Part shown: in pieces, positions 8,004-51,388 of the stretch | Layout of the letters: every line of letters begins with the position of its first letter | Position numbering within the stretch: position 1 is the stretch's first letter | From: Alphaproteobacteria bacterium | GTDB lineage: Bacteria > Pseudomonadota > Alphaproteobacteria > Rs-D84 | Reading direction: 5' to 3' | Assembly (NCBI GenBank): GCA_046881825.1 | Contig: JBKSMS010000012.1 | Location: 25,103-89,102, forward strand | Length of the DNA: 64,000 bases | Translations under genes and position numbers: made by a program | Notes under the pieces: generated by a model | The model's input: only the letters and a program-made list of their open reading frames with translations | Databases searched by the model: none | What the model was told of the DNA's origin: nothing

Positions 8004-8026
8004 AATCATAACAAAAAAAATATAAG

Positions 8027-8055
8027 AAAACACCGGCAAATGCCGGTGTTTTTTT
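8027..8055. terminator. Bidirectional rho-independent terminator (CACCGGCAAATGCCGGTG + T7)
   Basis: A perfect hairpin flanked by an A-run and a T-run sits between the convergent skp-like gene and infB. Confidence 0.85.
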
Positions 8056-8073
8056 ATTACAAAATAATTTATT

Positions 8074-16211: not shown

Positions 16212-17314
16212 AACCTGTATTATTTAATTTTAACGACAGTGAATTAGAAAAATTCGTTACGGATTTATCATTGCCACGATTTCGCGCTAAACAGATTCGT
16301 GAATGGTTAAATCGTGGCGCACCTGATTTTGGTGTAATGAAAAATTTGCCCATTGATTTGCGTGAAAAATTAAATGAAGCAGCAGAAACTTTGCCAGTGA
16401 AAATTATTAAAAAATTAGAAAGCAGCGACAATCAAACAACTAAATTTTTGCTGGAATTAAAAGACGGGGAACAAATAGAATGTGTTTTAATGCGCACAAC
16501 ATACGGCAACAGTGTTTGCGTATCGTCCCAAGCAGGATGCGCAATGGGATGCAAATTTTGTGCTTCGACTTTGCTTGGGCTTAAACGCAATTTGACAGTA
16601 AATGAAATGTTCGCACAAATTTTGGTGGCTCAATGGGAATTGCGTGGCGACAGATTACGCGATATACATCCAAACGGTGACGCAAACAACGGCGATGTTT
16701 CACACATAGTTGTTATGGGCACAGGCGAACCATTACAAAATACAGAAAATGTTATTGGCTTTTTAGAACGCGCGAATTCTGAATTAAATATATCTTGGCG
16801 GCGAATAACTGTATCGACTTGTGGGATTGTGCCCGGAATCGAAGAATTAAACAAATGGGGGCGCCCGATTAATTTAGCTATATCTTTGCATGCCCCAGAT
16901 GATGAATTGCGTTCAAAAATCATGCCGATAAATAACAGATATAAACTACACGAAGTTCTTGATGCCGCATTCACGTTTTCTGACACACACAATCGCCAAT
17001 TAATGATTGAATATATACTGTTAGGCAAAAAAGACAAAGATGGTTCTGTGGCGCTTTATAACGCAACTGAAGAGCATGCGTTAAAACTGGTTGATTTAAT
17101 GCGTGGACATAATGTTATGGTAAATCTTATTCCATGGAACAGTGTTGATGAACGCGATTTTGCTTCCATTTCTGGAAATGCGGTTCACAGATTTCAAGAT
17201 ATTTTGATTAAAAATGGGATACACACGCGAATAAGGCGGGAACGGGGGGCAGATATAGGTTCTGCGTGCGGACAATTAAGATTAAAAAACAAAAGGATAA
17301 AAGATGAAGCTTAA
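16208..17314 (+). CDS. rlmN: 23S rRNA/tRNA m2A methyltransferase RlmN (radical SAM)
   Basis: FRAKQIREW, SSQAGCAMGCKFCAS, VVMGTGEPL and the C-terminal GADIGSACGQL are present. Confidence 0.93.
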   Translation: MKPVLFNFNDSELEKFVTDLSLPRFRAKQIREWLNRGAPDFGVMKNLPIDLREKLNEAAETLPVKIIKKLESSDNQTTKFLLELKDGEQIECVLMRTTYGNSVCVSSQAGCAMGCKFCASTLLGLKRNLTVNEMFAQILVAQWELRGDRLRDIHPNGDANNGDVSHIVVMGTGEPLQNTENVIGFLERANSELNISWRRITVSTCGIVPGIEELNKWGRPINLAISLHAPDDELRSKIMPINNRYKLHEVLDAAFTFSDTHNRQLMIEYILLGKKDKDGSVALYNATEEHALKLVDLMRGHNVMVNLIPWNSVDERDFASISGNAVHRFQDILIKNGIHTRIRRERGADIGSACGQLRLKNKRIKDEA

Positions 17315-17425: not shown

Positions 17426-18730
17426 TTAATTTTTCAACATGTTTGGATTATTATCATCTGATTTTCTTGGGGCTGTTATACTAATTCCATCTAATAACCG
17501 AAAACATTTGCCTTCGTAATCTACATTGAAACCCTCCATACATTGACATTTACCCCCAATCCAATTACCACCACTGTCTTTACACTTAAATTTTTTTGTT
17601 TCTTGGGGAACATTGGTTGTTGTTTTTGTCACAGAACCATTACCCTGCCCGCTGGCTGATGTTCCAGATTTATCTGTTGACAAATTTTTATTGTTGTTGT
17701 TGATGTTCGAAGATGTTATGGAAACATCTGACAAATCTATTTCTTCATATTCTGATTCAATGCACCCCTCAGAATCATCCCAAATAGAAAGTCCCGGACA
17801 CAAACATGTGTTATATTGGTCATCCCAATCACCCAAAGTCATATAACATTTATCTTCCGCGTTATATTCGATATTATTATTACCGTTACTATTGCCATCA
17901 CTATTATTATTAGAATTTGACGAATTTTTATTGCTGACGGGACCGGTAGATAATGATGGACATTGCCCCATAAAATTAGCGGTACCATACAAACAGTAAC
18001 ATGTACCAGGGACAGCGGAAATTCCACCAGAATTTTTACAATTTTCTGTGAAGGTATCAACCGCAACATCTGTGCTATCTAAAAACTTTGCTTCTTCAAT
18101 CTCATTAAACAAATGCGTTCCGCATTCTTTATCCGTTACTGCCGCTTTAAAGACCCCCTGTAAAAAATCATCTACACCATCACAATCTTTGAATTTTGTG
18201 CCTTTTTTGCATGCAAACCTATAACCGTGCCATATTATACCACCATCTTCATCTACGACTTCTTCTAACAAGTCGTCTAATTCTTCTTTTAGTCCAGTAT
18301 AAGAATCTTGATATTTGCTTGGAATTCCGACTGTGAATTCCCCGTTAACCCGGTTAATACATTGTTGTTGGTTTTCGTTTATCGGTGCAGGGGTCGGATT
18401 TGATTTCTTTTGTTGTTTTTTTGCAATTTTTTCTTTTTCGTCTGCAATTGCTTTTTCTTTTGCTTCTATGTCTTTGTTCTTTTTAGCAATGGCATCATCG
18501 TATTCTTGTAATTTTTGTGCTTCGGCTATATTACCCGCAACACCAACCGCGGTAAGACCTATCGTGGAAAGCCCCGCTATCTTTAAGCCCTTTGACGAAC
18601 CCATACATTTTTCCAACTCTTCCATCTTGCGTTGTTTTTCGCGAACCAGTTGTGTATAGCGCGCCCCGGCCCCAAAACAAATATTTGGCGCAATCGCAAC
18701 AATCAAGCCAAGCAAAAAATATTTTTTCAT
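17426..18730 (-). CDS. Secreted cysteine-rich protein with coiled-coil, Asn/Ser-rich linkers and EGF-like CxC modules
   Basis: The signal peptide is MKKYFLLGLIVAIAPNICFGAG, followed by a Gly/Ala hydrophobic stretch and a Lys/Glu coiled coil. There are three CxC modules. The last, CQCMEGFNVDYEGKC, fits C-x-C-x2-G-F-x7-C. Poly-N/S linkers are present. Confidence 0.6.
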   Translation of the reverse strand: MKKYFLLGLIVAIAPNICFGAGARYTQLVREKQRKMEELEKCMGSSKGLKIAGLSTIGLTAVGVAGNIAEAQKLQEYDDAIAKKNKDIEAKEKAIADEKEKIAKKQQKKSNPTPAPINENQQQCINRVNGEFTVGIPSKYQDSYTGLKEELDDLLEEVVDEDGGIIWHGYRFACKKGTKFKDCDGVDDFLQGVFKAAVTDKECGTHLFNEIEEAKFLDSTDVAVDTFTENCKNSGGISAVPGTCYCLYGTANFMGQCPSLSTGPVSNKNSSNSNNNSDGNSNGNNNIEYNAEDKCYMTLGDWDDQYNTCLCPGLSIWDDSEGCIESEYEEIDLSDVSITSSNINNNNKNLSTDKSGTSASGQGNGSVTKTTTNVPQETKKFKCKDSGGNWIGGKCQCMEGFNVDYEGKCFRLLDGISITAPRKSDDNNPNMLKN

Positions 18731-18753
18731 GTCATAAACCCTCAAAATTTTAT

Positions 18754-19146
18754 TTAATTTGTTTTTTTCAATTCGTTTAATTCATCATTTTTGGCTTTTA
18801 ATTCTAATTTTTTAGATTCTAATTCACTTTTTTTGTCGCCTATTTTAACACCTTGGACAGCAGCAGCAGTTCCAGTTGCGACAACCCCAACGGCACCAAT
18901 TACCGTTGCAGCAATCCAACCCTTTTTCTGCTTCTTACATTTGGCGATTTCTTCATCCAAAATACGAATATCTTCTTGTAATGTGGCGATGTCTGCAGCC
19001 TCTTCAGCCCCTATTACTTCTTCGCCACCGTTGGCATCAATAATCTGTTGCTCATAACGTTGTGCGGTAGAATTTTTTATCTTTACAGCCCCATAGGCTT
19101 CAAATACAAACACACCAATTATTACGGGTATAATATATTTTTTCAC
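18754..19146 (-). CDS. Small secreted/membrane protein sharing the N-terminal module of the 17426-18730 protein
   Basis: A GTG start sits 5 nt after the GGGGGGA SD. The signal peptide is MKKYIIPVIIGVFVFEAYGA. KCKKQKKGWIAATVIGAVGVVATG parallels KCMGSSKGLKIAGLSTIGLTAVGVAGN of the neighbour. The tail is coiled-coil. Confidence 0.55.
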   Translation of the reverse strand: MKKYIIPVIIGVFVFEAYGAVKIKNSTAQRYEQQIIDANGGEEVIGAEEAADIATLQEDIRILDEEIAKCKKQKKGWIAATVIGAVGVVATGTAAAVQGVKIGDKKSELESKKLELKAKNDELNELKKTN

Positions 19147-19172
19147 AAAATCCCCCCTTCTTTCTCGTGATT

Positions 19173-19201
19173 ATTGTATCACATTTTGGGTAAATTTACA
19201 A
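19173..19201 (-). promoter_or_regulatory. Candidate sigma70-type promoter for the 18754-19146 gene
   Basis: The minus strand reads TTGTAA-N17-TACAAT with a TG one base upstream of the -10 box, about 25 nt upstream of the GTG start. Chance matches are common in AT-rich DNA. Confidence 0.35.
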
Positions 19202-19227
19202 ACGCAAATATGTTTTTTGTTCCACTT

Positions 19228-19434
19228 TTATAATTTCCCCTTTGTAGGGGGCGCCCGTAAGGACGGGGGAGGGTTACCCCCCTCCGGCTGACGCCGCACT
19301 CCCCCGATGGGGGAGAATTGTTCTGCAACTCCTGAGTGCAAATTCTGCCCCGACCTGTCCCACGAAGCCTTAGCGAAGTGGGATGGGGGAAGTGTCACCG
19401 CAGGTGACGAAGGGGGTGAATAAAAAAACGCCAC
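19228..19434. repeat. G+C-rich multi-hairpin element (copy 1 of a repeated core)
   Basis: It consists of runs of C4-C7/G4-G7 forming stacked hairpins: CTCCCCC-GAT-GGGGGAG, GTCACC-GCA-GGTGAC and CCCGT-AAGG-ACGGG. The core at 19386-19417 is 31/32 identical to 34382-34413. Confidence 0.7.
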
Positions 19435-19447
19435 ATGGCGTTTTTTT
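19422..19447. terminator. Bidirectional terminator (A7-CGCCACATGGCG-T7)
   Basis: A hairpin flanked by A7 and T7 lies immediately 3' of tRNA-Val on the minus strand. Confidence 0.7.
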
Positions 19448-19452
19448 ATTTG

Positions 19453-19529
19453 TGGTGGATGTTAAGGGACTCGAACCCCTGACCCTCTGCGTGTAAAGCA
19501 GATGCTCTAGCCAACTGAGCTAAACATCC
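19453..19529 (-). tRNA. tRNA-Val (anticodon UAC)
   Basis: The minus strand reads GGATGTTTAGCTCAGTTGGCTAGAGCATCTGCTTTACACGCAGAGGGTCAGGGGTTCGAGTCCCTTAACATCCACCA. It folds as a cloverleaf with anticodon loop TTTACAC and an encoded CCA. Confidence 0.92.
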
Positions 19530-19578
19530 AGAAAGCGATAGTTATGTTATCTTATTTTTTCAAATTGTCCAGTGTTTT

Positions 19579-19872
19579 TTATTCGCCCAATCCGCCGGTT
19601 ATTGCTGACATAGTTTTATCAATCAATGCGTCTGCTTTTGATTTAGCGTCTTTATAGGCATCAAATACCAGTTTTGATAATGCTTCTGCCCCCAAATTCA
19701 ATGCGCTTTCTTGAATATTCACAGACACAATATCGTATTTCCCAGTCATATCAACAACAACCAGCCCCTTTTCTGCAATACCTTTGACATGCTGTTGCGC
19801 CAATGAATCTTGAGCGTTTGATATTTTGGTCTGTAAATCTTTGGCTTGCGCCATCAAAGCTTCCATATCCAT
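19579..19872 (-). CDS. ybaB: Nucleoid-associated protein YbaB/EbfC
   Basis: MEALMAQAKDLQTKI...GLVVVDMTGKYDIVSVNI is typical of this family, and the size is 97 aa. Confidence 0.88.
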   Translation of the reverse strand: MDMEALMAQAKDLQTKISNAQDSLAQQHVKGIAEKGLVVVDMTGKYDIVSVNIQESALNLGAEALSKLVFDAYKDAKSKADALIDKTMSAITGGLGE

Positions 19873-25115: not shown

Positions 25116-25676
25116 ATGAAAATAGAAGAAAAATTTATTGAATATGAAAAACTGTTAAAAGATTGGTCGACAAGAATAAACTTGGTCGCCCCCAGTACTT
25201 TGAATGATGTTCAAAACAGACACATCAAAGACAGCGCGCAATTGGCTAAATACATACCAAAAAATGTAAAAATCATTGATTTGGGCAGCGGCGCGGGCTT
25301 TCCCGGGGTCGTTCTGGCTATTTTGGGATGGGAAGTTGTTTGTATCGAATCAATCGGCAAGAAAACAAAATTTTTAAATGAATTAAAAGAAAAATTAGAT
25401 TTACCAAACCTGACTATTATAAACGACAGAATAGAAAATTTTTTATCGAAAACACCGGTAAATGCCGGGAAATTTGTATTCACCGCTCGGGCTTTTGCAC
25501 CATTAATTAAAATTTTTGATTATACACACAAAACAAATTGCCGGCTTTTTTTACTAAAAGGCCGGGAAATTGAAACAGAAATCGCAACTGCAAAAAGTCG
25601 ATATAAATTCGATTATAAACTTTATAAATCTGAAACAGGCGACGGTTTTATTATTTGTATTTCTAATTTAAAATGA
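25116..25676 (+). CDS. rsmG: 16S rRNA m7G527 methyltransferase RsmG (GidB)
   Basis: NRHIKDS and the SAM motif IIDLGSGAGFPGVVLAI are present. Confidence 0.9.
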   Translation: MKIEEKFIEYEKLLKDWSTRINLVAPSTLNDVQNRHIKDSAQLAKYIPKNVKIIDLGSGAGFPGVVLAILGWEVVCIESIGKKTKFLNELKEKLDLPNLTIINDRIENFLSKTPVNAGKFVFTARAFAPLIKIFDYTHKTNCRLFLLKGREIETEIATAKSRYKFDYKLYKSETGDGFIICISNLK

Positions 25677-27449: not shown

Positions 27450-27478
27450 AAAAACACCGGCAAATGCCGGTGTTTTTT
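27450..27478. terminator. Bidirectional terminator (CACCGGCAAATGCCGGTG + T6)
   Basis: The hairpin is identical to the one at 8031-8048. It lies between the convergent parB and pal. Confidence 0.85.
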
Positions 27479-27495
27479 GAATAACAAAAGTTATA

Positions 27496-28776: not shown

Positions 28777-29325
28777 ATTAAACCGAATAATAACAATGGC
28801 AAAGCCCGCGATATGGGTCCGCGTATAAACGAAAAAATATTTGCAAAAACTGTCCAAGTAATCAGCAATGATGGTCAAAATCTTGGCACAATGAATTTAT
28901 CCGATGCTTTGAACAGGGCATATGATTTGGGATTGGATTTGGTTGAAATAAACGCATCTGCAACCCCAGTGTTGGTCAAAATTATGGATTACGGCAAATA
29001 TAAATACGAACAGAAAAAACGCGCTAATGAAGCGCGCAAAAAGCAAAAAACAATCGAAATCAAAGAAGTTTGGGTAAAACCTTTTATCGAAGAAAATGAT
29101 TTAAACATCAAAATGAAAAAGGTTTTCGAATTCCTGGACGAAGGGAACAAGGTAAAAATTGCGGTTATGACGCATGGTAATAAAAAAGTATTGGCGCGTG
29201 GCCGTGATGCTGTTCCACAGTTGTTTGCTAATATTATTGAATTGATTGGTGACAAAGGAACACTGGAATCTAAATCTAAACCAGATGACAGGACAAAATC
29301 AATTATAATTGCACCTGCAAAATAA
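28777..29325 (+). CDS. infC: Translation initiation factor IF-3, probable AUU start
   Basis: RINEKIFAKTVQVISNDGQNLG and KEVWVKPFIEENDLNIKMKK are IF-3 motifs. An in-frame ATT at 28777 lies 7 nt after AAAGGAG (28763-28769). The first ATG is at 28813. Confidence 0.85.
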   Translation: MKPNNNNGKARDMGPRINEKIFAKTVQVISNDGQNLGTMNLSDALNRAYDLGLDLVEINASATPVLVKIMDYGKYKYEQKKRANEARKKQKTIEIKEVWVKPFIEENDLNIKMKKVFEFLDEGNKVKIAVMTHGNKKVLARGRDAVPQLFANIIELIGDKGTLESKSKPDDRTKSIIIAPAK

Positions 29326-29328
29326 TCA

Positions 29329-29352
29329 CACCGGCAAACGCCGGTGTTTTTT
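29329..29352 (+). terminator. Rho-independent terminator (CACCGGCAAACGCCGGTG + T6)
   Basis: The hairpin plus T-run sits 4 nt after the infC stop. Confidence 0.8.
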
Positions 29353-29423
29353 ATATCGTTTATTTGTTGCAAATAATGATTTTATGCTGTATCTTTTAAG
29401 GACAAAAAACAAAAGGATTTTTC

Positions 29424-33305: not shown

Positions 33306-33308
33306 GAT

Positions 33309-33335
33309 AAAAACCGGCATTTGCCGGTTTTTTTT
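33309..33335. terminator. Bidirectional terminator (ACCGGCATTTGCCGGT + T8)
   Basis: A hairpin with flanking A- and T-runs lies between rpsO and the convergent 33374 gene. Confidence 0.8.
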
Positions 33336-33373
33336 ATTCTTCATCTTCTTCTGTTCTGTGACATGATAGTAAA

Positions 33374-33931
33374 CTATTTGACCGCCCCTGGTACATTGGT
33401 TGATTTGACTGATTTTTCATTACATAAATTACCATTACCATCTAAACAATAAACCATAACTTTGTTACCATTTGTAGAAATTTTTGGTTCGCAACCTTCT
33501 GGGCATTCAATATTCACAAAACCAGAACTAACTTTTGTTATTGATCCTGGTTCAACACTGACTGGTTCATACACAATCTTTTTTACCATACGCGGTGTTT
33601 CCGCGCTACGTGCAGAAACTTTTTTTGATTTTTTTGCATTTACTTTGTCTGTTTTATTTGGTTTTAAAGCGGTCGGATTACCCACTGGTGTTACAGGTGA
33701 AATCGCATTATCAGCCTCAATATTTACACTAGGGTCATCACATATTTTACCTTCTGGTGTACGGCACTCAGCCATTGTGAAACTGCCACCATGCGCAAAA
33801 TGAAGCTCGCATCCAGCAGGACAAGTATAAGTAACTACCACATCTTCAGATTGAACAGCACCAGCATTATTTATACCATTAATCAATGAAAGGCACCCCG
33901 CCATCGAAAAAATTAAAAACACTTTTTTCAT
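33374..33931 (-). CDS. Secreted (possibly lipo-) cysteine-rich protein with two CPxGCE modules
   Basis: The signal peptide has MAGC. The two modules are TYTCPAGCELHF...C...C and NIECPEGCEPKI...C...C. The central region is basic, and KVSARSAETPRMVKKIVYEP is shared with the neighbour. Confidence 0.55.
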   Translation of the reverse strand: MKKVFLIFSMAGCLSLINGINNAGAVQSEDVVVTYTCPAGCELHFAHGGSFTMAECRTPEGKICDDPSVNIEADNAISPVTPVGNPTALKPNKTDKVNAKKSKKVSARSAETPRMVKKIVYEPVSVEPGSITKVSSGFVNIECPEGCEPKISTNGNKVMVYCLDGNGNLCNEKSVKSTNVPGAVK

Positions 33932-33964: not shown

Positions 33965-34345
33965 TTATTCCATATAGTCATCGGAAATGATTTCTTCGTA
34001 AACAATCTTTTTTACCATTTTTGGCATTTCCGCGGCACGTGCTGAAACCTTGTTCACTTTTTTTGCGTTTTTTATTGCTGCTTGATTTAAAGTGCTCTGA
34101 CTCATTACTCGTTGTATTTCACTGGGTGACGGAGTGAGATCTTCCGTCGATACGTTTGGGTCTGTCACAGTGCCGTCTGAACATTTGCATCCCGCTACTG
34201 TAGTTCCATTTTGAAGGATATGCGTGGAAAGCTCACATCCATCAGGACAAGTATAAGTAACAATGACAGTCTGTGAACTGACCGCATACCCATTTGTTGC
34301 AGTTAGACCTGCAATCAGTCCCATGATTAAAAAAGTTTTTTTCAT
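33965..34345 (-). CDS. Secreted cysteine-rich protein, single-module paralog of the 33374-33931 protein
   Basis: The signal peptide is MKKTFLIMGLIAGLTATNGYA. TYTCPDGCELST...GCKC is the module. KVSARAAEMPKMVKKIVYEE matches the neighbour. Confidence 0.55.
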   Translation of the reverse strand: MKKTFLIMGLIAGLTATNGYAVSSQTVIVTYTCPDGCELSTHILQNGTTVAGCKCSDGTVTDPNVSTEDLTPSPSEIQRVMSQSTLNQAAIKNAKKVNKVSARAAEMPKMVKKIVYEEIISDDYME

Positions 34346-34368
34346 AATGTTTCTCCCTTTTTTATATT

Positions 34369-34445
34369 ATTCTGCCCCATTGGGGAAGTGTCACCGAAGG
34401 TGACGAAGGGGGTTCAACACCCCATCGGAAAAACTCTTTCCGACA
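34369..34445. repeat. G+C-rich multi-hairpin element (copy 2)
   Basis: ATTCTGCCCC-ATT-GGGGAAGTGTCACCGAAGGTGACGAAGGGGGT is followed by GGGGTTCAACACCCC and CGGAAA..TTTCCG hairpins. It lies 24 nt 5' of the 34345 start codon. Confidence 0.7.
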
Positions 34446-34489
34446 CAGAGTATTTTATCATAAAAAAGCATATAAACGAAGCAAAAAAT

Positions 34490-43268: not shown

Positions 43269-44399
<1,131 letters not shown>

Positions 44400-44402
44400 T
44401 TC

Positions 44403-44425
44403 AACCGGCAAATGCCGGTTTTTTT
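44403..44425 (+). terminator. Rho-independent terminator (AACCGGCAAATGCCGGTT + T5)
   Basis: The hairpin plus T-run sits 4 nt after the mreB stop. Confidence 0.8.
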
Positions 44426-44467
44426 ATTTGCAAATGCAATTTTTGCTGTTATAATCTGTTCTGCTTT

Positions 44468-50359: not shown

Positions 50360-50689
50360 ATGAAAAAAATTATTTTATTACTGGCAACTATCGTTTTAAC
50401 AGGTTGCGATTCTTTCCAACAACCGAAATGTTGGGACAAAAAAGCGAAAGATTTCTTATTAAACGATACTGATTATACGGAAACAAATAACGATACAAAT
50501 TCTCCTGATTTTATGAAAACCTCTAATTATAAAGCCGTACAAATTAAAGATATATATGATGATAACGATGGAAATTGTGTAGGAACCGTTCTGTTCTCAA
50601 ATGGTAAAACATGGACATATACATATAAAATTAGATATGTAAAAACAGAGAAAGGAAAAGAAACTAGGGTTTATGACGTAACATACTAA
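50360..50689 (+). CDS. Small lipoprotein, unknown function
   Basis: The signal peptide carries the lipobox VLTGC. An AAGGAG SD sits upstream. It lies between tRNA-Thr and a terminator. Confidence 0.55.
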   Translation: MKKIILLLATIVLTGCDSFQQPKCWDKKAKDFLLNDTDYTETNNDTNSPDFMKTSNYKAVQIKDIYDDNDGNCVGTVLFSNGKTWTYTYKIRYVKTEKGKETRVYDVTY

Positions 50690-50716
50690 AAATACCGGCT
50701 TTTGCCGGTGTTTTTA
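50690..50716. terminator. Bidirectional terminator (ACCGGCTTTTGCCGGT + T5)
   Basis: The hairpin lies between the lipoprotein gene and the convergent nth. Confidence 0.75.
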
Positions 50717-51388
50717 ATGTTTTTTATCACTTGCACAACACCACTTATTTACCGGGCAATTTTGACAATCTGGACGAAGTGCTTTGCATGTGTATCGTCC
50801 ATGCAAAACCATTACATGATTGACGATTGCATGATATTTTTTCGGGATTATTTTTAATAATTTTGCTTCCACTTTTTCTGGGGTATTTTCTTTTTCATCA
50901 CACCAACCAAATCTGTGTGCCAATCTAAACACATGTGTATCAACCCCGATGTTTGGCGCATTCCACAAAACATTCATTATCACATTTGCTGTCTTTTGAC
51001 CGACACCCGCCAATTTCATCAATTCACTGCGTTCATGATACTTTTGCGGAAATTTATAGTTCAAATCATTGCTGTTTTTATCTTTTAATTGCGTAGCAAG
51101 TTTTATGATATTGTTTGCCTTGTTATTAAAAAAAGAAATTACTTTGATTTGTTTTTTTAACTCAATCAAACCCAATTCCAGCATTTTATCGGGTGTTGGC
51201 GCAATTTTAAACAGATTTGGGGTTACTTCATTAACCTTTCTATCAGTTGCCTGGGCTGATAAAATTACAGCTACCGCAAAAGTAAATTCGTTAATCGAAT
51301 ATAACTCTGACCGGATATTCATATTCAATGTTTTTGGAACATTTTCAAAATAAATATCCGGTGTAAGAGTTATTTTCTTTTTTGTCAT
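50714..51388 (-). CDS. nth: Endonuclease III
   Basis: The HhH motif is LMKLAGVGQKTANVIMN. The 4Fe-4S cluster loop is CKALRPDCQNCPVNKWC. Confidence 0.9.
   Translation of the reverse strand: MTKKKITLTPDIYFENVPKTLNMNIRSELYSINEFTFAVAVILSAQATDRKVNEVTPNLFKIAPTPDKMLELGLIELKKQIKVISFFNNKANNIIKLATQLKDKNSNDLNYKFPQKYHERSELMKLAGVGQKTANVIMNVLWNAPNIGVDTHVFRLAHRFGWCDEKENTPEKVEAKLLKIIPKKYHAIVNHVMVLHGRYTCKALRPDCQNCPVNKWCCASDKKH

Follow-up and report, generated by a model that had tools for sequence, protein, structure and literature searches.

A hairpin-rich island in an alphaproteobacterial contig as a likely gene-less derivative of a DUF559 nuclease cassette

RESULTS

The island and its second copy

A 64,000-nt stretch of contig JBKSMS010000012.1 from an Alphaproteobacteria bacterium (GCA_046881825.1; the whole stretch is called the window below) carries a hairpin-rich island at 19228-19434, which most likely derives from a cassette of palindromic repeats built around a DUF559 nuclease gene. 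Along the minus strand the locus reads ybaB, tRNA-Val(tac), a terminator-like hairpin, the island, a promoter-like site and a 130-codon gene, while a second copy of the repeat lies downstream of a gene for a MacB-like permease (Table 1). The original prediction, made from the sequence of the window, had described a G+C-rich chain of hairpins in an AT-rich background. This holds: the hairpins it named are present, and G+C content reaches 56% in 19200-19399 versus 37.7% for the whole window. The region 19140-19455 folds far better than its dinucleotide shuffles on both strands (z = -6.4 and -5.6, with 0 of 100 shuffles as good). The placement of both copies 5' of minus-strand genes for secreted-looking proteins was also correctly seen, with a promoter-like site intervening at copy 1.

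Copy 1 (19232-19417) is made up of three palindromic units of ∼45 nt in alternating orientation, ordered unit(+), TTA, unit(-), spacer, unit(+), and copy 2 is a lone unit(+). Of the ∼200-nt element with a second copy that had been proposed, the sequence is therefore real; the island, however, consists of three units and an insert, and its second copy is a single unit. A unit-pattern scan finds only these four units in the window, all of them intergenic and each fitting the architecture given below. The predicted 31/32 identity between 19386-19417 and 34382-34413 is reproduced by blastn within the window (E = 4e-10) and extends to 33/35 (repeat family D15). The decamer ATTCTGCCCC at 19342-19351 is found again at 34369-34378, and the gap between the two shared blocks is, as predicted, 34 nt in copy 1 and 3 nt in copy 2. 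Tail to tail, units 1 and 2 form the hairpin GGGGGAGGG-TTA-CCCCCCTCC, which spans 19265-19285.

The nested insertion suggested earlier gains modest support, as the 34-nt insert sits in a hairpin loop and has a hairpin of its own that resembles a separate repeat. It is missing from copy 2 and from all other units of the unit 3 type, and its hairpin CCCACTTCG..CTTCGTGGG is similar to the repeated hairpin CCACACTTCG..CTTCGTGTGG of the related contigs L100, L103 and L106 (1909-1933 in L106). These unit-rich low-GC contigs (L100 4490-5270, L103, L106) also carry other interleaved repeats, both the insert-like hairpin and TGTCATCCTGAGG-type sequences that recall CGTC/NTS-like repeats.

The Rfam search named earlier as a check returned no known RNA: with the Rfam 15 covariance models four tRNAs alone reach the gathering score, and local searches to E = 10 give only weak terminator-driven matches, none of them credible. 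A 68-codon minus-strand open reading frame (ORF) with a GTG start covers window 19228-19434 and lies wholly inside repeat and terminator sequence. The frame is probably not a real gene, and gene finders could report it as a hypothetical protein; among the ORFs near units, the largest 'protein' cluster consists of similar frames derived from repeats.

Table 1. Repeat units of the window and features around them (window coordinates)
Feature	Position	Strand or orientation	Remarks
Unit 1, decayed variant	19232..19273	unit(+)	AATTTCCCC-TTTGTA-GGGGG; hairpin CCCGT-AAGG-ACGGG (19254-19267); terminal purine tract GGGGGAGGG
Tail-to-tail junction TTA, 3 nt, units 1/2	19274..19276	.	elsewhere occupied by a ∼350-nt DUF559 gene (L145, L207, L225, L233-L312, L313-L340)
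Unit 2	19277..19319	unit(-)	CCCCCCTC; hairpin CGGC-TGAC-GCCG (19285-19296); hairpin CTCCCCC-GAT-GGGGGAG (19299-19315); AATT; unit-pattern match
Head-to-head spacer, units 2/3	19320..19341	.	variable 20-35-nt spacer at this place in Marinicaulis-type and low-GC full elements
Unit 3	19342..19417	unit(+)	ATTCTGCCCC ... GGGGAAG; hairpin GTCACC-GCA-GGTGAC (19394-19408); then CGAAGGGGGT; insert in loop of first hairpin
34-nt insert	19352..19385	.	own hairpin TCCCAC / GTGGGA (19358-19363, 19378-19383); in loop of unit 3 first hairpin
Copy 2	34369..34413	unit(+)	ATTCTGCCCC-ATT-GGGGAAG; hairpin GTCACC-GAA-GGTGAC (34390-34404); then GAAGGGGGT
Gene for secreted-looking protein	18754-19146	-	130 codons, signal-peptide-like N-terminus; downstream of copy 1
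Promoter-like site for gene 18754-19146	19173..19201	-	TTGTAA, 17 nt, TG-n-TACAAT; between copy 1 and gene; kept in element-less strains
Bidirectional intrinsic-terminator-like hairpin	19422..19447	.	A-run, CGCCA-CA-TGGCG, T-run; directly after unit 3; context, outside repeat
tRNA-Val(tac)	19453..19529	-	ARAGORN; context
ybaB	19579-19872	.	before tRNA-Val(tac) in minus-strand order
126-codon gene	33965-34345	-	product with signal-peptide-like N-terminus; copy 2 lies 23 nt upstream of ATG at 34345
Terminator-type hairpins D1	8026-8058, 25448-25480, 27450-27482, 29324-29356, 33307-33339, 44398-44430, 50688-50720		second repeat family of the window

Architecture of the unit

Comparison of arms defines a unit of ∼45 nt (42-50 nt) with three parts: a first hairpin formed by a pyrimidine (C) tract and a purine (G) tract (for example, CTTCCCCC / GGGGGAAG), a second hairpin with a G+C-rich stem of 5-7 bp, a 3-4-nt loop and hypervariable sequence, and a terminal purine tract (for example, CGAAGGGGG). 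Units are found singly, as inverted doublets and as alternating-orientation arrays or mosaic clusters, the doublets and arrays being present in loci L001-L012, L102, L108 and L110. In nearly all units the variable hairpin ends 3' in GACG, which reads CGTC on the opposite strand; in high-GC units CCACC comes next. In the window, units 1 and 3 and copy 2 carry CGTC, unit 2 is without it, and no unit has the CCA tail.

Covariation analysis, mentioned earlier as a possible check, gives a strong signal for the variable hairpin. Its sequence takes 138 distinct forms in 174 units, and in a 77-sequence alignment 88.8% of cells are paired versus 63.6% in shuffles, with 133 cells changed on both sides of the stem versus 39.7. 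The covariation score is 0.512 versus 0.114 for shuffled alignments; none of 500 shuffles scored as high and slid partner columns gave at most 0.12. These statistics cover the variable hairpin alone: the C-tract was inconsistently aligned by MAFFT, and the first hairpin and the mirror relation described next were tabulated by script.

The first hairpin's purine tract and the terminal one mirror each other and vary in concert (GGGGGAAG with GAAGGGGG, GGGGGAGG with GGAGGGGG, GGGGGAG with GAGGGGG), so that AAG goes with GAA, AGG with GGA and AG with GA. At the variable mirror position 364 concordant G/G, 59 concordant A/A and ∼25 discordant cases were counted among 460 pattern matches, in which register variants of one unit are counted repeatedly. 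Such mirror covariation is not required by Watson-Crick pairing and would be compatible with the need of an intramolecular purine-motif triplex; since there are just three or four subtypes, however, common descent would explain it adequately too.

Distribution of the repeat family

The repeat family is widespread in Alphaproteobacteria: a search for further copies, left to later work by the original prediction, found the ∼45-nt unit in the genomes of many members of this class and in metagenome contigs. Among species-representative genomes, an exact scan places a 29-nt core at 12 loci in Marinicaulis and other alphaproteobacterial metagenome-assembled genomes (MAGs) of ∼58% G+C, and the 29-nt core of unit 3 is identical in Marinicaulis MAG copies and in low-GC metagenome contigs. 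In Marinicaulis-type loci this core forms the right arm of a ∼125-nt inverted-repeat element, which has CCCCCTYCG at one terminus and, inverted, CGRAGGGGG at the other. Ten of these full elements were combined in a profile, to which nhmmer aligned window 19279-19417 from position 2 to position 125 (E = 4e-10) and copy 2 within the right-arm half (positions 74-125, E = 1e-9).

With a general pattern, the matches listed include Sphingomonas isolates, Caulobacter, Phenylobacterium, Hyphomonadaceae, Reyranella, Kiloniellales and a few non-alphaproteobacterial MAGs. A metagenome scan adds 13 contigs, most of 38-43% G+C, with several copies each and some tandem mosaics; low-GC contigs with units are of gut or rumen type. 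Genomes other than that of the window have 2-3 copies per 8 kb and matches on several contigs. BLAST of the island against plasmid and phage collections gave no match, and neither did an exact pattern scan of viral contigs.

Units bracket DUF559 genes

ORF clustering, once translated repeats and syntenic housekeeping genes are set aside, leaves DUF559 as the sole recurrent protein family near units. Genes flanked by units match Pfam PF04480 (DUF559) with E 1e-24 to 1e-26, and the closest solved structure to the DUF559 protein is 3HRL. Residues D52, E63, D65 and H69 of the protein (numbering of alignment A3) are conserved. In unit-seeded loci all 7 DUF559 genes are directly flanked by units, typically in the order unit(+), gene, unit(-). 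The same layout appears from the protein side. When 80 loci were fetched with the DUF559 protein alone as a seed (three-sequence alignment), units were present on both sides of the gene in 58, on one side in 17 and on neither in 5, that is, on at least one side in 75/80. In the 58 doubly flanked loci unit(+) ends ∼11 nt before the ATG and unit(-) begins ∼25 nt past the stop codon. Only 8 units occur elsewhere in the protein-seeded loci, a ∼100-fold local enrichment beside DUF559 genes. At least 33 distinct genomic neighbourhoods are represented among these loci, and in several species the cassette occurs two or three times; the coupling extends from gut organisms of 38% G+C to Sphingomonas of 70% G+C with the cassette layout fixed. 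A nuclease partner of this kind had not been foreseen in the original prediction.

The unit subtypes of the window themselves belong to such cassettes. The DUF559 protein of the low-GC locus L102 has 223 close homologues, many on very short contigs and two named by NCBI as alphaproteobacterial-MAG proteins; among the low-GC loci of four of these homologues, low-GC units stand on both sides of the gene in every locus with flanking sequence. Low-GC DUF559 genes of L313-L340 are flanked by the subtypes seen in the window at 79-93% identity. Unit 1 is identical at 37/47 positions to the unit that follows the DUF559 gene of L313 and at 33/44 to the sequence just upstream of that in L102, unit 2 at 38/46 and 37/46 to DUF559-flanking units of L325 and L323, and copy 2 at 42/45 to the unit adjoining the L102 gene. 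Unit 2 is also near-identical to a unit of L335-L340 that stands 11 nt ahead of the ATG of DUF559, in a series that runs unit(-), spacer, unit(+), 11 nt, DUF559, unit(-), spacer, unit(+), the last being of the GTCACC type. The low-GC DUF559 contigs come from samples other than that of the window. The 42/45 identity of one subtype, in a gut organism of 38% G+C versus marine MAGs of 58% G+C, suggests either horizontal spread of the nuclease-unit pair or a very strong constraint.

Further details of the cassettes were noted. In L328-L334 the DUF559 gene (1501-1848) is bracketed by ∼170-nt inverted repeats, near-perfect by eye, that reach well past the unit, so that the cassette looks like an insertion sequence (IS)-like element of ∼700 nt without a transposase. 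In Sphingomonas L207 (4340-4365) and in L335-L340 (L335 1880-1902) the terminal purine tract runs into a Shine-Dalgarno-like GGAGGA/AAGGA 5-6 nt before the DUF559 start. The low-GC cassettes of L313 and L323 (1450-1500) have ∼50 nt of A+T-rich, promoter-like sequence without a Shine-Dalgarno sequence before the ATG, which suggests that their mRNA may be leaderless.

Related strains and neighbouring features

The ParA protein of the window is 91% identical to proteins of rumen or gut MAGs labelled Alphaproteobacteria or Candidatus Enterousia. Two related strains (L013, L014) are without the island: their YbaB protein is identical, flanks are 87-99% identical, and the promoter and downstream gene are shared. 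Loci of 80 related species across the syntenic region, 1.42 Mb in all, yielded a single unit (in L032). With the element missing from both strains and almost missing from these loci, the island does not qualify as a locally conserved regulator.

The tRNA-Val(tac) cassette (promoter, gene and terminator; window 19419-19572) is inverted relative to L013 1102-1437 and L014 533-868 (blastn), and in these strains it abuts the position equivalent to window 19222. The island's place is taken in them by a 63-nt duplicate that comprises the terminator and the 3' end of the tRNA, with 117 nt of unrelated sequence behind it. The inversion together with the duplicate looks like a scar of integration or recombination at the tRNA. 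Two contigs of SRR26714000 break inside unit 3: L016, 100% identical to the window over 912 nt, stops at the position of window 19388, and L019 begins near window 19416. Breaks in assembly graphs are typical at repeats that have further identical copies in the sample.

Other features of the surroundings are as follows. The element-then-terminator arrangement of copy 1 is also seen in L102, L110 and L111. Units of L102, L108 and L112 also adjoin genes for secreted-looking proteins; in the window, a larger gene of this kind, for a Cys-rich protein (17426-18745), adjoins the copy 1 region, and the gene behind copy 2 is one of two tandem paralogues (33374-33931 and 33965-34345) for small, secreted-looking, cysteine-containing proteins (repeat families D3 and D12). 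Seven terminator-like hairpins with near-equal stem and loop (ACACCGGC-AAAT-GCCGGTGT and a T-run, often with an A-run before) make up repeat family D1. Local effects of the units are probably small: copy 1 would place extra stable hairpins after the terminator of the tRNA and before the promoter that follows, and copy 2 may provide a promoter.

DISCUSSION

Nature of the island and a possible role of the nuclease

The earlier suggestion of a mini-element of the REP (repetitive extragenic palindromic) type is borne out by a ∼45-nt unit recurring in many genomes, by an organisation like that of REPs and bacterial interspersed mosaic elements (BIMEs), by covariation in the stem and by presence or absence between close strains. 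What stands is the organisation; the classical marks of REPs, the GTAG tag and the RAYT partner, are absent. We conclude, with a probability of roughly 0.7, that the island is a non-coding, BIME-like cluster of REP-like units, most likely a gene-less derivative or orphan of a DUF559 cassette, and not an RNA gene. Copy 1 has the layout of the cassette with 3 nt (TTA) in place of the gene, and it is therefore read as a derivative that has no gene. As a cluster of orphan repeats the island itself is nothing unusual, and for the window the result removes a false lead, the island being neither an RNA gene nor a riboswitch.

By analogy with REP/RAYT and NTS/SsnA, the units are probably recognition sites of the DUF559 nuclease, dispersed as orphans. 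On this analogy the folded unit would be recognised or cleaved by its cognate nuclease, the hypervariable hairpin may carry specificity, copies would spread or persist via nuclease-induced repair, copying or recombination, and orphan units would remain in intergenic DNA. That DUF559 proteins of this clade are structure- and sequence-specific nucleases with the two-hairpin unit as their cognate site is a more tentative proposal, to which we give somewhat less than even odds. If true, it would add a third independent bacterial nuclease-repeat partnership to RAYT-REP and SsnA-NTS, the only two that we found described in the literature, would assign a role to a large domain of unknown function, and would explain a widespread alphaproteobacterial repeat family, with the island as a gene-less orphan. 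A nuclease that recognises the unit could also be a source of new site-specific nucleases and would offer a mechanism for repeat-linked rearrangements such as the inversion of the adjoining tRNA cassette. DUF559 proteins are reported to be 14-fold enriched at predicted programmed inversions (PMC9881135), and this fits genes bracketed by inverted units. The theme of a nuclease with a hairpin repeat is known already, and we did not find the coupling of this repeat family to DUF559 described; literature mentioning DUF559, represented largely by titles and abstract openings, contained no link to a repeat family.

Several observations weigh against this interpretation. There is no DUF559 gene in the 64-kb window (tblastn and hidden Markov model searches), and the four units within these 64 kb are all the units counted for the source genome. 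Flanks of full elements show no consistent target-site duplication. A clean empty site for copy 1 is not definable, as the difference from strains L013 and L014 also involves the tRNA-cassette inversion and other sequence. Instead of being targets, the units could serve the DUF559 gene as signals for its expression or termination. Copy 2, which lies close to a start codon (23 nt), has a decayed, recognisable counterpart at the equal site in L023, where the flanks are ∼86% identical (16245-16450 versus window 34362-34461): the unit there is A+T-shifted, its hairpins are kept via other stems (CCCTCCAAC/GTTGGAGG and GTCC/GGAC), and ∼100 additional nt stand ahead of the ribosome-binding site. Copy 2 is therefore older, and some copies may be old and co-opted.

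Other explanations

The alternative that fares best, though we consider it unlikely, is that of a classical REPIN or REP moved by a RAYT tyrosine transposase, or of a MITE (miniature inverted-repeat transposable element) moved in trans by a DDE transposase, the link with DUF559 being incidental. Spaced inverted doublets and BIME-like clusters are indeed a hallmark of REPINs and BIMEs (PMC3116915, PMC2817692), and the termini of the full element are inverted repeats. GTAG, however, is absent from either end in the unit alignments, there is no evident target-site duplication, and no Y1-transposase or other transposase family recurs beside units, where DUF559 is the sole recurrent neighbour; in ORFs beside the unit clusters of L006, L009, L100, L102 and L112 no RAYT or transposase was recognised by eye, no domain scan being made. 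An incidental link also fits poorly with units that are ∼100 times denser immediately beside DUF559 genes than elsewhere in the same loci.

Slightly less probable again is a variant of the CGTC-tagged REP or Ssn-related motif, with the GIY-YIG single-strand nuclease SsnA as a partner and DUF559 as a passenger. The variable hairpin does start with CGTC on the unit(-) strand in most units, with CCA following in high-GC units as described for these repeats (PMC3733652); CGTC REPs are most frequent in Alphaproteobacteria, and Sphingomonas is reported to have SsnA homologues (PMC11893778). At the same time, stems of 5-7 bp and loops of 3-4 nt contrast with the 8-9 bp and 4-5 nt of that motif, A/T pairs are missing at the first two stem positions, and the unit comes with a further hairpin of C/G tracts and with a tail of purines. 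It also gives no match to the NTS consensus CGTCATTCCCGCGMAVGCGGGAATCYRG. Moreover, the gene between units is DUF559 in 75/80 protein-seeded loci, and clustering of neighbours gave no other recurrent family, GIY-YIG domains not having been scanned for.

Control of the adjoining genes for secreted proteins by a structured cis-regulatory RNA (riboswitch or 5' leader) or by a small RNA gene seems improbable, marginally more so than the previous alternative. It would account for the very stable folding of both strands, for the position of both copies upstream of minus-strand genes for secreted-looking proteins (with similar placement in L108 and L112), and for the terminator-like hairpin at the plus-strand end of the island; the unit of copy 2 moreover gives a -35-like GTGACA, with AATAAT 17 nt downstream. 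A regulator of this kind is hard to reconcile with the promoter-like site between copy 1 and its gene and with the element-less strains, which keep both promoter and gene. It also has no Rfam match, and units occur in both orientations and in unrelated contexts, such as between convergent genes, after stop codons and around DUF559 genes. As for a promoter borne by the unit as a property of the family, this was rejected: only the -35-like GTGACA is in the unit, and the -10-like hexamer of copy 2 is flanking sequence that is not conserved in other copies.

A remnant of local duplication or a chance similarity of two intergenic regions, which the original prediction had kept for the case of just two copies without transcription or conservation, agrees with the repeat being carried by two loci alone in the window and is nevertheless refuted by the collection scans, which found hundreds of homologous units with compensatory stem changes in unrelated genomes, so that its probability is negligible.

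Comparison with known systems

REP, BIME and REPIN elements carry a GTAG tag and have a tyrosine transposase as a partner (PMC3116915, PMC2817692). Like the units described here, they are short, G+C-rich, imperfect palindromes in extragenic DNA that occur as singles, spaced inverted doublets and clusters of alternating orientation, with the partner gene between two inverted repeats and with stem structure kept while stem sequence varies. The present units differ in being without the GTAG tag and in their composite build of two hairpins and C/G tracts over ∼45 nt, and the bracketed gene encodes a PD-(D/E)XK DUF559 nuclease and not an HUH tyrosine transposase. In addition, some species have several copies of the DUF559 cassette in one genome, while RAYTs typically occur as single copies (PMC5581495).

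CGTC-tagged REPs predominate in Alphaproteobacteria and have no dedicated transposase reported (Di Nocera et al. 2013, PMC3733652). They are defined by 8-9-bp stems with A/T at the first two positions, 4-5-nt loops, a CGTC (or TGTC/CCTC) tag at the 5' end of the hairpin and a CCA tail (PMC3733652). Head-to-head dimers as the main arrangement are shared with our family, in which a CGTC-like tag in most units and a CCA tail in high-GC units, around the variable hairpin, recall those repeats. Its stem and loop sizes, in contrast, fall outside the four published families and it has a second hairpin.

The relation of copy 1 to the DUF559 cassette looks like that of a MITE to its IS, a gene-less form of an element with inverted ends. 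No transposase and no consistent target-site duplication were found, however, the hairpin-unit module also occurs alone, and what the longer form encodes is DUF559, a nuclease domain that is not known to act as a transposase. Rickettsia palindromic elements (RPEs) were defined in Rickettsia and are often in-frame insertions in genes. They share with the island that they are palindromic repeats in an alphaproteobacterium; the window copies differ in being intergenic, the comparison being one of descriptions only. Two of them, RPE-4 and RPE-6, are CGTC-type REPs (PMC3733652).

On the side of the protein, the DUF559/Vsr clade includes the homing endonuclease I-Bth0305I (PMC3424549). The partner protein of our units belongs to the same PD-(D/E)XK clade, and a selfish role of a site-specific nuclease has a precedent there. 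In contrast, the DUF559 genes described here are free-standing, lie outside introns and, in the loci seen, do not stand beside a cytosine methyltransferase gene.

The closest functional precedent is NTS/SsnA. The canonical CGTC repeat NTS flanks the gene of the small GIY-YIG nuclease SsnA and is cut by SsnA as single-stranded DNA (Nat Commun 2025, PMC11893778). The fold of the nuclease is different (Vsr-like PD-(D/E)XK here versus GIY-YIG), as is the sequence of the repeat, which has two hairpins in our family. What the two systems share is the order of repeat, small single-domain nuclease gene and repeat, the many orphan hairpin repeats elsewhere in the genome, the CGTC-like start of the hairpin and their occurrence in Alphaproteobacteria, including Sphingomonas.

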